Below are positions 46,893-50,928 of a DNA stretch of 64,000 nt, in pieces (the stretch's first letter is position 1; the number at the start of each line of letters is the position of its first letter). The notes under the pieces were generated by a model, which worked only from the letters and a program-made list of their open reading frames with translations, was not told the DNA's origin and did no database searches. A program made the position numbers and the translations under genes. Source of the stretch: Deltaproteobacteria bacterium. Lineage in GTDB: Bacteria; Desulfobacterota; Binatia; UTPRO1. The DNA lies in contig JADLHM010000098.1 of assembly GCA_020848745.1 (NCBI GenBank), forward strand, positions 207,185 through 271,184. The letters run 5' to 3'.

Positions 46893-47300
46893 ATGAGCAA
46901 GATCTACGACGCCCTCCAGCATCTCGAGGCCCAGAGGAAAGCGATGGAAAGCGGTCAGGCCCCCGATCTCGGGGCGAATCCACTCGACCTGCAGGAGCGG
47001 CCGACGCCGGCGTCCGCGCCGCGTCCCGGCAGCACCGCCCAGAGCCTGCTCGAGCACGCCGGTGCCGTGATGCGCTTCGAGTCCGAGCTGCACCGCCGCA
47101 TGGGCGAAGCGGGTTTCAACGGCCTGCACGGCCTGTTCGCGCTCGCCGAGCAGCTCGAGCGCGCGCTCGCGACCGTGTCGCGGCACGAGCTCGACGGCGC
47201 CGAAAGCGACCTCGAGCGCGTCGCCGACCGCATCCGTGGGATGCAGCACGACCTCCGCCAGCTGAAGGCGGTGAAGACGGACTTCGAAGGACTGCGCTGA
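46893..47300 (+). CDS. Hypothetical small protein (135 aa)
   Basis: ATG with GGAAGGA RBS; non-Arg-rich, helical-looking composition; convergent with aroG. Confidence 0.5.
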   Translation: MSKIYDALQHLEAQRKAMESGQAPDLGANPLDLQERPTPASAPRPGSTAQSLLEHAGAVMRFESELHRRMGEAGFNGLHGLFALAEQLERALATVSRHELDGAESDLERVADRIRGMQHDLRQLKAVKTDFEGLR

Positions 47301-47336
47301 GCGGAGCGCGGCGCGCGGCGTTCCGGGCTCCGGCCG

Positions 47337-48398
47337 CTACGCCGCGCTCTTCGTGCGCGTCGCTGCGGCGATCTCGCCGAGCAGCGTCTCCGTCTCGTCC
47401 CACCCGATGCACGCGTCGGTGATCGACACGCCGTAGCGGAGATCGGTGCCGGCGACCCAGTCCTGCCGGCCGGGCTCGAGATTGCTCTCGACCAGCAGGC
47501 CCATCACGGCGCCGTTGCTCGTGCCGAGATGCGCGAGCACCTCGCGGCAGACGATCGGCTGGCGCGTGTAGTCCTTGCTCGAGTTGCCGTGCGAGCAGTC
47601 GATCATGACCGGTCGCGCGAGCCCCTCGCCCGCCACCATCTCGGCCGCGCGCGCGACGTCGGCCGCGCTGTAGTTCGGGCCGCCGCCGCCGCCGCGCAAC
47701 ACGACGTGGCGGTCGGGGTTGCCGCCCGTCTTGATCATCGCGGTGGCGCCGTCGGCGCCGATGCCGAGGAAGGTGTGCGGGTGGCGCGCCGAGATCATCG
47801 CGTGGAGCGCCACCTGCAAGCCGCCGTCGGTCGAGTTCTTGAAGCCGATCGGCATCGAGAGGCCGCTCGCCATCTCGCGGTGGGTCTGACTCTCGATGGT
47901 GCGGGCGCCGATCGAAGCCCAGCTGAGGAGATCCGAGATGTACTGCGGCGTGATGGGATCGAGGACCTCGCCGCCGCACGGCAGCCCGAGCTCGTTGATC
48001 TCGAGGAGGGTCTTGCGGGCGAGCTGCAGGCCGGTCGCGATGTCGCACGAGCCGTCGAGGTGCGGGTCGTTGATGAGGCCCTTCCAGCCGATCGTCGTGC
48101 GCGGCTTCTCGAAGTAGGTGCGCATGACGACGATCAGGCGGTCGCGGGTGGCCCTCGCGACCTCGAGCAGCCGGTGCGCGTAGTCGTGCGCCGCGTCGGG
48201 GTCGTGGATGGAGCAGGGGCCCACGACGACCACCAGGCGGTCGCGATCGCGTCCGTGCAGGACGTCGCGAATCGCGCGCCGGGTCTCCAGCACGAGGTCC
48301 GCGGCGCGCTTCGTGAGCGGCTGCGCCGCCTTCACGGCGCGCGGCGAGATGAGCGGCATGATGTCCTCCACGTTCCGGTCTTCGATTTTCTCGATCAC
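47337..48398 (-). CDS. aroG: 3-deoxy-7-phosphoheptulonate (DAHP) synthase, class I
   Basis: LVVVVGPCSIHD, KPRTTIGWKGL, IGARTIESQTHRE motifs; GTG start 48396-48398 with AAGGAG RBS 6 nt upstream. Confidence 0.85.
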   Translation of the reverse strand: MIEKIEDRNVEDIMPLISPRAVKAAQPLTKRAADLVLETRRAIRDVLHGRDRDRLVVVVGPCSIHDPDAAHDYAHRLLEVARATRDRLIVVMRTYFEKPRTTIGWKGLINDPHLDGSCDIATGLQLARKTLLEINELGLPCGGEVLDPITPQYISDLLSWASIGARTIESQTHREMASGLSMPIGFKNSTDGGLQVALHAMISARHPHTFLGIGADGATAMIKTGGNPDRHVVLRGGGGGPNYSAADVARAAEMVAGEGLARPVMIDCSHGNSSKDYTRQPIVCREVLAHLGTSNGAVMGLLVESNLEPGRQDWVAGTDLRYGVSITDACIGWDETETLLGEIAAATRTKSAA

Positions 48399-48422
48399 GA
48401 CGTGCTCCTTTGTCTTCCCCGG

Positions 48423-48460
48423 CTCGTGGTCCCCAAAAAACGAAGGCCCCGAGATCGCTC
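48423..48460 (-). terminator. Intrinsic terminator in aroG leader (11-bp GC-rich stem, 6-nt loop, then CGTTTTTT)
   Basis: Minus-strand RNA AAGGCCCCGGGAGCGAUCUCGGGGCCUUCGUUUUUUGGGG read directly; ends ~26 nt upstream of aroG start codon. Confidence 0.7.
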
Positions 48461-48494
48461 CCGGGGCCTTCGGATTCTGCGGAATGGTCTCTCG

Positions 48495-48572
48495 TCTAGC
48501 CGTTCACGCAGCCGCCTGCCCCGAGGTCGGGCCAAGTAAAGTACGCAAAATAGGCGGCGGCGAACGTCGACA
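48495..48572 (-). CDS. Candidate aromatic-amino-acid leader peptide (25 aa: MSTFAAAYFAYFTWPDLGAGGCVNG)
   Basis: ATG 48570-48572 preceded by GGGAG RBS; Phe/Tyr/Trp-rich run uses rare AT-rich codons TAT TTT TAC TTT ACT TGG in very high-GC genome; stop 34 nt before terminator hairpin. Confidence 0.55.
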
Positions 48573-48815
48573 TGTGAAGGCTCCCTATACCGGCGGCGGG
48601 GGCCAGGTCAAAGGCGCCGGCGCTCAGACCACGTCGGCCGCGGCGAAGAACTCCATCCGACGTGCCGTACGGCGCGGGGTTACGGCGCGATGACGCGGCT
48701 TCGGATCACGTCGCGCACCTTCACGTCGGACACGATGCGGACCTGACCGGACTCGCGCGTGGCTGCGAGTACTCGAATGCTGTCGCGGCCCCGAGGTTTG
48801 CCGTAAGACGGGACG

Positions 48816-49772
48816 ATGTGGGGCGGAGGAGGGCCGGGACGCGCGGATGCCGAGCGCGCCGGGCTCGTCTTCGCGGGGCTCTGCGCCGTGAACGGCGCGT
48901 TCGTGCCGGCCGTCGCCCGGCTGACGAGCGTCCAGGTCGATCCGCTCCTCGTCGCGACCGTGTCGAGCCTTTTCGCCGGCGCCTTCGCGCTCGCCGTGCT
49001 CGGGGCGCGCGGCGAGCTCGGCGTGCTGTTCGCGCCTGGCAAGGCGCCGCGGTTCGCGCTGGTCGGCTTGCTCGGCACGGCGCTCGCGTTCGTCCTCTTC
49101 TACGCGGGGGCGCGGCGGACGAGCGCGATCGAGGCGGCGCTCGGCTTGCAAGTCGAGCCGATCTATTCGCTCTTCGGCGCCTGGCTCGGGCTCGGTCATC
49201 GGCCGACGCTGCGGCGCGTGCTCGCGCTCGGCGTCCTGCTCGCGGGCCTCGCGCTCGCCCTCGGCGCGCACGAGCTGTCCACCTCGAGCGGCGTCTGGCT
49301 GATCCTCCTGACGCCGCTCTGCTGGCAGCTCTCGCACCTCGTCGTGCTGCGCGGGCTCCGGGGCGTCGACGGCGTGACGCCGTCGGTGCTGACGGGGGCG
49401 CGCTACGTGTACGGGGGAGCGATCCTCACGGTCGCCTGGCTCGCGTTCGGCCGCGGCGACGACGCGCTCGCGGCGCTCGGTCCGAGCCTGGCGCTCCTCG
49501 CGTTCCAGGGGATCGTGCTCTCCTATCTCGGCACGATCGTCTGGTACGCCGCCATCGTCCGCCTCGACCTCGCGCGCACGACCGCGATCGTCGTGCCGTC
49601 GATTCCGGTGTTGTCGCTCGCGGCGTCGTTCGCCCTGCTCGGCGAGGTCCCGACGCTGCGGCAGGCGCTCGGCATGGCGCTCACGGCGGCCGGCGTGCTC
49701 GCCTTCGTCACCGCGCCGCACGCGGAGCCGGCGCGGCGCCGCGTCCCGACGCTGACGCTGCGCGCGCACTGA
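48816..49772 (+). CDS. DMT (EamA-like) family transporter
   Basis: 10 hydrophobic helices in two halves; 318 aa. Confidence 0.65.
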   Translation: MWGGGGPGRADAERAGLVFAGLCAVNGAFVPAVARLTSVQVDPLLVATVSSLFAGAFALAVLGARGELGVLFAPGKAPRFALVGLLGTALAFVLFYAGARRTSAIEAALGLQVEPIYSLFGAWLGLGHRPTLRRVLALGVLLAGLALALGAHELSTSSGVWLILLTPLCWQLSHLVVLRGLRGVDGVTPSVLTGARYVYGGAILTVAWLAFGRGDDALAALGPSLALLAFQGIVLSYLGTIVWYAAIVRLDLARTTAIVVPSIPVLSLAASFALLGEVPTLRQALGMALTAAGVLAFVTAPHAEPARRRVPTLTLRAH

Positions 49773-49797
49773 TGGTCCGCCGCGCGCTCCGGCGTTC

Positions 49798-50928
49798 TTA
49801 CTCCACCCGCTCGAGCGGCAGCACCAGCCGCGACGGACCCGGCAGCCCCGCCGACGAGTTCAAGGCGGCGGCGCGCGTCTGCGGCGTGCAGAAGACCGCG
49901 ACGTAGGTCGGGCGCGTCGGGTCGCAGCGGCCCGTCGCGGTGATCGTCTCGCCGAAGCACGGACGCTCGGCGAGACGGCACTCGCCGCTCCCCGGCGCGA
50001 CGGCGTCGCAGTCCTCGCGGCCGGTGCCGGGACGACAGTCGCGATACGGCGCGGTGCTGCACGCGCCGTCGACGGGCCCTTCGGGGCAGCGTCCGTCGGC
50101 GGCGCAGCGGTCACCGACGCAGGGGTTCGCCTGCACCTGGGCGGGACAGAAGCAGCGGGGCGCGTCCTTGCCGGTGCTCACCTTGCAGACGAGCGTCGCG
50201 GCGAGCGCGGCCGTGCCGGTCGTGAGGGGGGCGAGGTCGATCGTGAGGTCGCCGGCGCTCTTGGCCGACGCGGGCTCGCAATCGTTCGAGGTCGCGCCGA
50301 AGTCGGAGCTCGCGCCTTGCGCGTCGCACGGCTGGCCGTCGGCCCGCCCGCCCTGGCACCGCCCGTCGCGCTTGCCGTCGTTCGGCATCCCGTCGCCGCG
50401 GCAGGCGGGGCAGGGGCGGGCAACCTCGTCGCCCGTGTAGATGGCGGAGGCGAGATGGAGCAGGAGCTCGCCGCATCCGGTCTGCGGATCGACGCTGCCG
50501 CCCACGCCCGTCCGCAGGCGATTCACCACGCACGCCGGGACGCCGCCCGACGAGAGCGGGATCGGCGCGCCGAAGGAGTCGCCGCGCCTGCCGCCGACGG
50601 CGGCGCAGCGCGGCCCGCCGGCGCCGCAGTCGAGCGCGAACGCGAGGCGTTGCTCGCTCGGCCACGGCTCGTCGTGCGCGATGCCGGTCCAGCCGAGGTC
50701 GGCGCGCGCCTCCGGGCGGATGCGATAGGCGACCGGCACGGGTCCCGGAGCGGCCGCGCCGGCCCCCGGCGCCGCTGCTGCCCCGGCCCTCGGTGTCGCC
50801 GCCGCGCCGGCCGCCGGGGTCCCGGCCGGATGCGGTTCCGCCCCGCGCCCCTCGTGCGCCCGCCCCGGCGTCGCGGCGACGCTCGCGAGCAGGAGCGCCG
50901 CGAAGGCGGCGCGACAACGACACCGCAT
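49798..50928 (-). CDS. Secreted cysteine-rich protein (GWTGIAH family), paralog of 12168..14300
   Basis: Signal MRCRCRAAFAALLLASVAATPGRA; shared DLGWTGIAHD and GLPGPSRLVL motifs with the other copy; ATG overlaps stop of upstream acyl-CoA dehydrogenase (TGATG). Confidence 0.65.
   Translation of the reverse strand: MRCRCRAAFAALLLASVAATPGRAHEGRGAEPHPAGTPAAGAAATPRAGAAAAPGAGAAAPGPVPVAYRIRPEARADLGWTGIAHDEPWPSEQRLAFALDCGAGGPRCAAVGGRRGDSFGAPIPLSSGGVPACVVNRLRTGVGGSVDPQTGCGELLLHLASAIYTGDEVARPCPACRGDGMPNDGKRDGRCQGGRADGQPCDAQGASSDFGATSNDCEPASAKSAGDLTIDLAPLTTGTAALAATLVCKVSTGKDAPRCFCPAQVQANPCVGDRCAADGRCPEGPVDGACSTAPYRDCRPGTGREDCDAVAPGSGECRLAERPCFGETITATGRCDPTRPTYVAVFCTPQTRAAALNSSAGLPGPSRLVLPLERVE

Follow-up and report, generated by a model that had tools for sequence, protein, structure and literature searches.

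Ribosome-mediated attenuation is textbook knowledge for the trp, pheA, his, leu, thr, and ilv systems. The textbook control of genes for 3-deoxy-D-arabino-heptulosonate 7-phosphate (DAHP) synthase, the enzyme that sets the flow of carbon into phenylalanine, tyrosine, tryptophan, and many secondary metabolites, consists of repressors (TyrR and TrpR) and feedback inhibition. An attenuator upstream of such a gene, the aroR-aroF attenuator of Corynebacterium glutamicum, was reportedly described by Neshat et al. in 2014, and aroR-aroF is one experimentally supported case of DAHP synthase attenuation. According to three reports, a leader peptide with the sequence F-Y-F is encoded upstream of aroF, and expression goes up on stalling under phenylalanine limitation (PMC11802643, PMC4046766, PMC7356990). 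Here we analyzed a 64,000-nucleotide (nt) stretch of DNA, referred to as the window, from the metagenome-assembled genome (MAG) of a Deltaproteobacteria bacterium (GCA_020848745.1; contig JADLHM010000098.1, positions 207,185 to 271,184), in which the DAHP synthase gene aroG is preceded on the minus strand by a short open reading frame (ORF) rich in aromatic codons and by an intrinsic terminator. On the evidence of comparative sequence analysis and RNA folding, this leader is very probably a ribosome-mediated (leader-peptide) transcription attenuator of a monocistronic DAHP synthase gene. A preliminary description of the window had read the leader in the same way, and that reading is supported by the conservation of the element, by the confinement of the aromatic residues to one reading frame, and by alternative folds of the RNA.

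The aroG gene lies at positions 47337 to 48398 on the minus strand, with a GTG start at 48398, and encodes a class I (AroG/F/H-type) 3-deoxy-7-phosphoheptulonate synthase of 353 amino acids. Its match to the Pfam family DAHP_synth_1 (E = 2.8e-82) agrees with the identification made earlier. The protein is 95% identical to one annotated as the same enzyme in a "Deltaproteobacteria bacterium" MAG and 90% identical to one from "Polyangiaceae bacterium UTPRO1," and the gene order of the window is common to both of these relatives. UTPRO1 is one of seven orders in the uncultured phylum Binatota (PMC8262859), and the closest species-representative genomes among the matches listed are assigned to "Candidatus Binatia" (80% and 74% DAHP synthase identity). 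Judging from these best hits and from synteny, the window most probably derives from a Binatota/UTPRO1-type organism; an actinobacterial source, at first suggested by the high GC content, was rejected because the nearest proteins belong to Binatia/UTPRO1-type MAGs. Read 5' to 3' on the minus strand, the region upstream of aroG consists of TTGACC, a spacer of 16 to 18 nt, the element TATAGGGA, the ORF with its ATG start, a 23-nt spacer, the hairpin, six U residues, and 36 nt leading to the GTG codon. These 36 nt, a distance first estimated at about 26 nt, include the Shine-Dalgarno sequence of aroG (AAGGAG, 48405 to 48410, minus strand, 6 nt before the GTG by direct reading of the sequence); they therefore leave no room for a separate aroG promoter, and a sequence scan of this gap found none. 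The neighbor upstream of the leader, encoding an EamA-family transporter (48816 to 49772, plus strand), is divergent, and the gene after aroG is convergent both in the window and in relatives; the hairpin thus cannot terminate a neighboring gene, and aroG is a monocistronic unit.

The leader ORF was found as it had been described, with 25 codons followed by a TAG stop (48498 to 48496), extending from its ATG at 48573 to 48496 on the minus strand and encoding the peptide MSTFAAAYFAYFTWPDLGAGGCVNG; homologous ORFs are present in 28 relatives. Six of the 25 residues are aromatic (F4, Y8, F9, Y11, F12, and W14), and the putative regulatory run reads TAT TTT GCG TAC TTT ACT TGG (Y8 F9 A10 Y11 F12 T13 W14; 48532 to 48552, minus strand). 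The densest eight-residue stretch, which contains YFAYFTW, holds five aromatic residues and not the six counted previously. The view that the regulatory codons are rare holds for TAT, TTT, and ACT, used once, twice, and once in the leader, which make up 11% of Tyr, 2.9% of Phe, and 0.7% of Thr codons, respectively, among 13,303 codons from the 24 long ORFs of the window with high G+C content at the third codon position (93%); TAC and TGG are not rare synonyms. Across 25 family members, phenylalanine, tyrosine, and tryptophan account for 26.6% of the residues in the ORF frame, compared with 3.1% and 8.1% in the other two frames, which corresponds to 8-fold and 3-fold enrichments. At least one TTT codon for Phe is present in 24 of the 25 family leaders, with the TTT at the F12 position being nearly invariant, and in 22 of the 25 peptides all three aromatics are represented. 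Equivalent positions can be occupied by Y, F, or W, as in YFAYFTW, FFGYFSW, FWFGYFCF, YWFYAYFTFPW, and FYGYFSYSWW.

The C-terminal half of the leader peptide, by comparison, is not kept as protein between close relatives. In the window and at two related loci (L161 and L162; L numbers denote the loci compared), a 1-nt insertion (GACCUCGGGG versus ACCUCGGGG in relatives) changes the reading frame, so that the encoded sequence is DLGAGGCVNG and not TSGQAAA. The stop codon of most relatives is a TGA within the conserved sequence CTGCGTGA, which is out of frame in the window, where the ORF ends with a TAG located 9 nt downstream of the family TGA position. The RNA sequence GGGGCAGGCGGCTGCGTGA is unchanged despite the frameshift, and the nucleotides of the two groups (window, L161, and L162 versus L164, L165, L168, and L081) are almost identical. 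The frame-specific aromatic residues, together with a C terminus that is shifted while its RNA is kept, therefore suggest that selection acts only on the aromatic codons and on the RNA following them, which is the signature of an attenuator leader.

The terminator named in the preliminary description was recovered by a sequence scan at 48435 to 48472 (minus strand). It has a 14-bp stem (48472 to 48459 paired with 48454 to 48441), a GCGA loop, and a U6 tract (48440 to 48435); the arms read CGAAGGCCCCGGGA-GCGA-UCUCGGGGCCUUCG (48472 to 48441), and 10 of the 14 pairs are G-C. It is one of two terminator-like sites between positions 47000 and 50000. In an alignment of 19 sequences, 89.8% of the cells of the stem are paired and compensatory changes occur in 7 of the 14 pairs, a covariation score that was reached by none of 500 shuffles. 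A bidirectional terminator was also considered and was rejected because no plus-strand gene ends there and no plus-strand T-run follows the stem.

Between the aromatic run and the terminator, a distance of approximately 50 nt, the leader carries segments that can pair in alternative ways. Segment 2, CUCGGGGC (48518 to 48525, minus strand), had been noted for its resemblance to the 3' arm of the terminator and is an exact 8-nt copy of that arm. It can pair with the terminator 5' arm or with segment 1, UGGCCCG (48528 to 48534, minus strand), a stretch of Trp-Pro-Asp codons which, in RNAfold pairings with segment 2, forms the 5' half of an anti-antiterminator. The antiterminator suspected earlier corresponds to a 6-bp core between segment 2 and the 5' arm (GCCCCG), in which 148 of 150 cells are paired over 25 sequences. 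One column of this core shows a G-C to A-U double change in seven sequences, and G-U intermediates occur at L132, L170, and L172. In the clade with changed terminator arms (GCCCUG/CAGGGC), segment 2 has changed alike, from CGGGGC to CAGGGC, and at L085 the sequence CAGGGU is found in segment 2 as well as in the 3' arm. The window duplex of segment 2 and the 5' arm has a predicted energy of −20.0 kcal/mol, compared with −14.5 kcal/mol for shuffles (p = 0.04). In an alignment-free test of the 25 sequences, the duplex of the post-aromatic leader with the 5' arm was stronger than that of shuffled leaders, and the best duplex site was fixed at −21 to −13 from the stop codon in most members. Enclosed by the antiterminator is an inner hairpin, CUGCG...CGCAG (48477 to 48511, minus strand), which holds the leader stop codon; 81% of the cells of its 5 bp are paired, and three of the five pairs show double changes. 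Each of the 19 aligned leaders is also predicted to form a local 1:2 hairpin between segment 2 and the codons that directly follow the aromatic run, with a sequence that depends on the clade (GCCC/GGGC, CCCUGG/CCAGGG, or CCCCGG/CCGGGG). This hairpin was scored by folding each sequence separately, since the clades use shifted registers for which the single register of a MAFFT alignment is unsuitable.

The preliminary description had called for folding the leader in search of mutually exclusive structures. When the nascent RNA was folded up to the terminator loop with ribosome footprints placed on it, the predicted structure depended on the position of the ribosome. A ribosome on codons 8 to 12 led to the antiterminator of segment 2 and the 5' arm (−34 to −37 kcal/mol), and the ribosome-free RNA had segment 2 in the local 1:2 hairpin; placing the ribosome at the stop codon left the 5' arm unpaired and available for the terminator. 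The geometry of the footprint agrees with these states, in that, when UUU(12) occupies the A site, the ribosome extends to approximately nt 46 of the ORF, covering segment 1 (nt 40 to 46) and leaving segment 2 (nt 49 to 56) exposed.

From these parts we infer a transcription start, a point of ribosome stalling, and a regulated read-through that would be connected as follows. Transcription would begin from the conserved promoter, the −10 element of which ends 7 to 9 nt before the ATG, leaving little or no untranslated sequence ahead of the ORF, whose translation would be leaderless or nearly so. If charged tRNA-Phe, tRNA-Tyr, and tRNA-Trp are plentiful, the ribosome would pass the Y-F-A-Y-F-T-W run and proceed to the stop codon. 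Segment 2 would then be sequestered in the 1:2 hairpin with UGGCCCG, or at or under the terminating ribosome, and the free 5' arm would form the 14-bp terminator and stop transcription at U6, 36 nt before aroG. If any of the three tRNAs is scarce, the ribosome would be expected to stall on codons 8 to 12, which include the rare, wobble-read TTT and TAT codons, hiding segment 1 and leaving segment 2 open. The 5' arm, GCCCCGGG, could then be captured by segment 2 immediately upon its synthesis, with the CUGCG/CGCAG hairpin looped inside the duplex; with the terminator blocked, RNA polymerase would continue into aroG.

Conservation was assessed in 172 loci encoding relatives of the DAHP synthase, of which none is from Corynebacterium and those taken from the collection matches listed were mostly 50 to 66% identical. 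When the 500 nt upstream of each orthologue were scanned mechanically, many of these stretches proved to hold a short aromatic-rich ORF with a terminator after it. A rule asking for an ORF of 10 to 45 codons with at least four F, Y, or W residues in eight and a terminator within 90 nt was satisfied by 21 of 158 real upstream regions but by none of the 158 reverse complements and none of 790 dinucleotide shuffles (5 × 158). A covariance model, R1, built from 19 aligned leaders matched the 64-kb window exactly once (132.9 bits) and matched at least 28 other distinct loci among the 172 once each (35 to 132 bits; E = 1e-8 to 1e-38), a family size that is a lower bound. All of these matches are on the aroG strand upstream of aroG, 10 of the loci are outside the seed alignment, and in nearly all of them the element ends within approximately 140 nt of the aroG start. 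The exception is L082 (2315 to 3000), where the attenuator (82 bits) lies approximately 550 nt upstream of aroG instead of approximately 30 nt and a small unrelated ORF has apparently been inserted between the terminator and aroG. At L097 (550 to 690), a palindromic insert, a long inverted repeat of CTGAGTCCTGAGT-like units, is found in the same interval.

The comparison with related genomes proposed in the preliminary description showed that orthologues of aroG with protein identities from 96% down to approximately 58% are preceded by the same kind of aromatic-rich ORF and hairpin. The element is present at every locus with at least 74% aroG identity and is patchy at 58 to 73%, being absent, for example, from the Nitrospira group. 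The upstream neighbors vary by locus (EamA, response regulator, epimerase, acyl coenzyme A dehydrogenase, SDR, and HAD hydrolase genes) while the element stays, and the element therefore belongs to aroG. We consider it reasonably likely that these leaders make up a sizeable uncatalogued cis-RNA family, the "aro leader," of which the window element would be the first to be recognized and in which a leaderless ORF, with a UUU codon that is wobble decoded and nearly invariant, serves as the sensor of Phe, Tyr, and Trp for the committed step of the shikimate pathway. The family would include uncultured Binatota, MAGs labeled as Myxococcota or Deltaproteobacteria, and a spirochaete MAG, and would have independently built analogues that are Tyr rich in other delta-type MAGs and of an F-Y-W-F type in Paractinoplanes.

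The 5' end of the leader was examined by comparing relatives, and this comparison points to a putative promoter with a −35-like hexamer, TTGACC (48606 to 48611, minus strand), and a −10-like element, TATAGGGA (48582 to 48589, minus strand). The latter contains the GGGAG that had been taken for the ribosome-binding site of the leader ORF. Of the first 23 family members examined, 15 carry TTGAC at 35 to 39 nt upstream of the leader start; conservation among relatives starts abruptly at TTTGACC, and the sequence further upstream diverges. Of 31 leaders, 20 have a TA dinucleotide at position −14 or −13 relative to the start codon, and the −10 hexamers of relatives (TATCTT, TAAATT, TACAGT, TATATA, and TATGCT, among others) have no purine-rich motif behind them. 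Shine-Dalgarno-like motifs precede 11 of 31 leader starts, compared with 23 of 31 aroG starts, and those at the leader starts are mostly part of TAGGAG or TAGGGA. GGGAG is present as described, but because the TA at −14 or −13 is conserved and the purine-rich motif is not, its role as a Shine-Dalgarno sequence was rejected; judging from the alignment, it is more likely a promoter −10 element (TTGACC-N16-18-TAnnnn, 7 to 9 nt before the ATG). A −10 element ending there would place the start of the transcript at, or within a few nucleotides of, the start codon, and the leader ORF is therefore predicted to be probably leaderless or nearly so.

Among described systems, the window most resembles C. 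glutamicum aroR-aroF as judged by its published description: in both cases a short ORF with clustered aromatic codons (F-Y-F in aroR) directly precedes a class I DAHP synthase gene, and the target gene, the logic, and the signal are the same. C. glutamicum, however, belongs to the Actinomycetota, whereas the window is from a probable Binatota MAG; the window peptide uses all three aromatics (Y-F-A-Y-F-T-W); and aroR-aroF has been validated experimentally, whereas the window element is known from sequence alone. Like the enterobacterial pheL-pheA (RF01859) and trpL (RF00513) leaders, the window has a leader ORF with a run of regulatory codons, and its segments fit the classic four-part design of an antiterminator (2:3) and a U-tract terminator (3:4), together with a putative 1:2 hairpin. 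It differs from them in regulating the first common step of the pathway and not terminal-branch genes, in having mixed F/Y/W codons and not a homopolymeric run, and in an ORF that is probably leaderless, whereas those of pheL and trpL are led by Shine-Dalgarno sequences. One of the loci, next to aroF-tyrA of Lonsdalea iberica (L058, 6436 to 6561, minus strand), is a genuine pheL that scored 92.6 bits with the RF01859 Phe_leader model and 29.8 bits with R1; it served as a positive control and shows the generic resemblance of the two types of attenuator.

Attenuation of the E. coli aroF-tyrA and aroH genes has been proposed (Camakaris 1980 and Zurawski 1981, as cited in PMC2659441). This proposal likewise puts the gene of a DAHP synthase isozyme under tRNA-dependent control of termination, but the established control in E. 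coli is through the TyrR and TrpR repressors, with no aromatic leader ORF established, whereas the window has an explicit, conserved ORF, terminator, and antiterminator. Leaders of the TnaC type resemble the window in that a short upstream ORF with Trp and Pro governs downstream transcription. TnaC, however, needs a conserved peptide and stop context and induces a catabolic operon via Rho; the window has an intrinsic terminator, a biosynthetic target, and a C-terminal peptide that is not conserved. The C terminus and stop context of the window, L161, and L162 differ from those of L164, L165, L168, and L081.

None of the Rfam leader families, including Phe_leader and Trp_leader, had a match even at E ≤ 10 between positions 47800 and 49200, and over the whole window, Rfam 15 gave no matches at gathering score; no tRNAs were found in it. 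No Rfam match to a T-box or riboswitch aptamer fold was found upstream of the terminator. Sub-threshold matches to the small RNA (sRNA) families sX12, BjrC68, and ar35 were rejected as merely reflecting the terminator hairpin. A 2010 survey knew of leader-peptide systems in Proteobacteria and Actinobacteria only and added the Firmicutes (PMC2965389). We found no prior description of an aro leader family in delta-type or other lineages in the literature, subscription journals (e.g., the attenuation surveys of the Russian school) aside. The earlier statement that attenuation of aroG was not known in this lineage thus holds for the searchable literature on delta-type lineages, although attenuation of a DAHP synthase gene as such has its precedent in aroR-aroF.

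Other explanations of the leader have to be considered. The terminator might be regulated by an RNA that binds a protein or a small molecule (TRAP-like, T-box-like, or riboswitch-like) or by Rho, with the ORF being incidental; other lineages apparently control the same gene without an aromatic ORF, as in the Opitutae hairpin element described below, and the covariation of the antiterminator is statistically weak. Against such a sensor, no Rfam family reaches its gathering score in the window, and the 8-fold and 3-fold excess of aromatic codons is confined to the ORF frame. In addition, the spacing between promoter and start codon is fixed, as is, in most members, that between segment 2 and the stop codon (−21 to −13), and the design recurs in variants dominated by Tyr (L080, L154, L134, and L075). 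We therefore hold a sensor without the ORF to be very unlikely. An independent small gene for an sRNA or a micropeptide, which aroG with its own signals would merely adjoin, is a shade less plausible still. The unit does have its own promoter-like element and a strong terminator, weak sRNA matches (BjrC68 at 24.7 bits, and sX12) fall over the terminator below their gathering scores, and attenuator-derived RNAs and leader peptides such as rnTrpL/peTrpL are reported to be able to act in trans elsewhere. However, only 36 nt, Shine-Dalgarno sequence included, separate the U-tract from aroG, no promoter was found there, and the element is tied to aroG at 28 other loci whatever the upstream gene. 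The C terminus shifts frame in close relatives, so that no functional peptide is kept beyond the aromatic run, and a role in trans could add to control in cis but not replace it.

The least probable of the alternatives is that the nascent peptide itself arrests the ribosome in response to free aromatic amino acids, in the manner of TnaC, or that the leader controls translation of aroG. W-P and P-G motifs do recur after the aromatic run, but RNA segments 1 and 2 (CCC and GGGGC) account for these repeated P and G residues, and in the window this region is read in another frame, as D-L-G-A-G instead of P-G-R/Q. Arrest induced by an amino acid would also turn on a biosynthetic gene when its product is abundant, which is physiologically backwards. 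The poor U-tracts of some relatives could mean that the hairpin acts at another level there, but the Shine-Dalgarno sequence of aroG is located 30 nt past the hairpin and is not sequestered.

Several observations weigh against the attenuator itself. Equilibrium folding of the full-length leader gives the terminator in every case, including those in which the nucleotides under a ribosome are masked; the switch must therefore be kinetic, and we assume in our model that it operates cotranscriptionally. The double changes in the antiterminator are restricted to one column and probably reflect one or two evolutionary events, its covariation score was matched by 20 of 500 shuffles, and most of the helix is invariant and thus uninformative on covariation; in these alignments, covariation support for the antiterminator appears real but statistically modest. 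The mean z score of the antiterminator duplex is only −1.5, with p ≤ 0.05 in 10 of 25 sequences, and the z scores of the short 1:2 hairpins are mostly not significant in such GC-rich RNA. The stop codon of the window lies 9 nt further downstream, so that a terminating ribosome would leave segment 2 uncovered and the OFF state would rely on the weak 1:2 hairpin. At the 5' end, the −10-like hexamer of the window (TATAGG or TAGGGA) lacks the canonical final T, and a strict sigma-70 scan of positions 47000 to 50000 called no promoter; it is possible that at this locus GGGAG is a Shine-Dalgarno sequence after all and that the promoter is more distant. Finally, the U-tract is interrupted after otherwise identical terminators at L162 (UUCUGCGUUU, 2950 to 2966) and L168 (UUCGUCGUUU, 2940 to 2955). 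These two loci are from close relatives, including a UTPRO1-type genome, and the efficiency of termination may vary between strains.

Different leaders were observed upstream of other relatives of aroG. At Opitutae/Verrucomicrobiota loci, a different, highly conserved element of approximately 140 nt is present 66 to 272 nt upstream of aroG (L029, 2780 to 2945, with equivalents at L036, L037, L041, L042, L044, L045, L055, L057, L065, L066, L068, L127, L151, L152, and L157). It starts with a TTGAC promoter-like box and a covarying hairpin, CUCCCGC-CUA-GCGGGAG, followed by UUUUGGGGUAACUAAGAAAGCAAA, and ends with a terminator consisting of a covarying stem (GGCCGGCCAC, GGCGGGCCGC, or GGCCGGUCGC), the conserved loop UUAGGGGUAA, and a T-run. 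This element contains no aromatic-rich ORF, matches no Rfam family at gathering score, and is a candidate for an uncatalogued cis-regulatory RNA, binding a ligand or a protein, on the same gene. The Tyr-dominated design mentioned above is found approximately 100 to 210 nt upstream of aroG at L080, L154, L134, and L075, with peptides such as MITGSRFYYRYYFYGANGLPVLR, MNLQTRGYYFWYFYYPPGLSEVR, ...FRYRYYVYYYATGLPEVR, and ...YRYYYCYYYTCGLSAAP and the terminator GCCGCAGGC...GCCUGCGGC plus a U-run. The enzymes at these loci belong to a more distant DAHP synthase clade (51 to 55% identity), and their leader is seemingly an analogue tuned to Tyr.

In the cultured actinobacterium Paractinoplanes lichenicola (L072, approximately 2820 to 2940), the ORF VTQAFYWFTRPAPAGASAMTIV follows TATGCT-N7-GTG and precedes a terminator and then aroG. 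This ORF (VTQAFYWFTRP...) is leaderless looking and its design is that of the window; R1 gave no match at this locus. P. lichenicola could be tractable for experiments. In Dehalococcoidia/Chloroflexota (L048, L051, L052, and L073), conserved ORFs located 140 to 300 nt upstream of aroG end in ...(F/Y)RW(F/S/T)Y(I/T)CRRRA with F-x-F motifs before, and are possibly a further family of aromatic leaders. In Nitrospira (L006, L011, L014, and L091), a short conserved ORF, MD(I/F)xFx(I/T)RYI..., with no obvious terminator, lies at −105 to −36 from aroG and may be a translational rather than a transcriptional leader, or due to chance.

Neither the mechanism proposed for the window nor the kind of target is new. 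The value of the finding lies in the breadth and clarity of the family, in its absence from curated RNA libraries, in the combination of a near-invariant rare UUU with the sensing of three amino acids, and in the probable leaderless design. A single attenuator integrating three aromatic tRNA pools at one gene would be a simple, protein-free form of control in lineages for which genetics is not available. The covariance model could be used for genome annotation as a new Rfam-type family, and approximately 25 "hypothetical small ORFs" would be flagged as leader peptides. Removal of the attenuator may offer an engineering handle for the production of aromatic compounds, as has been done with aroR in C. 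glutamicum. The leaderless layout and the near-invariant rare UUU provide testable design rules for sensitivity to stalling in GC-rich genomes. If our interpretation is true, the aro leader family extends classical attenuation well beyond the Proteobacteria, Actinobacteria, and Firmicutes, and a leaderless attenuator design exists outside the Actinobacteria.

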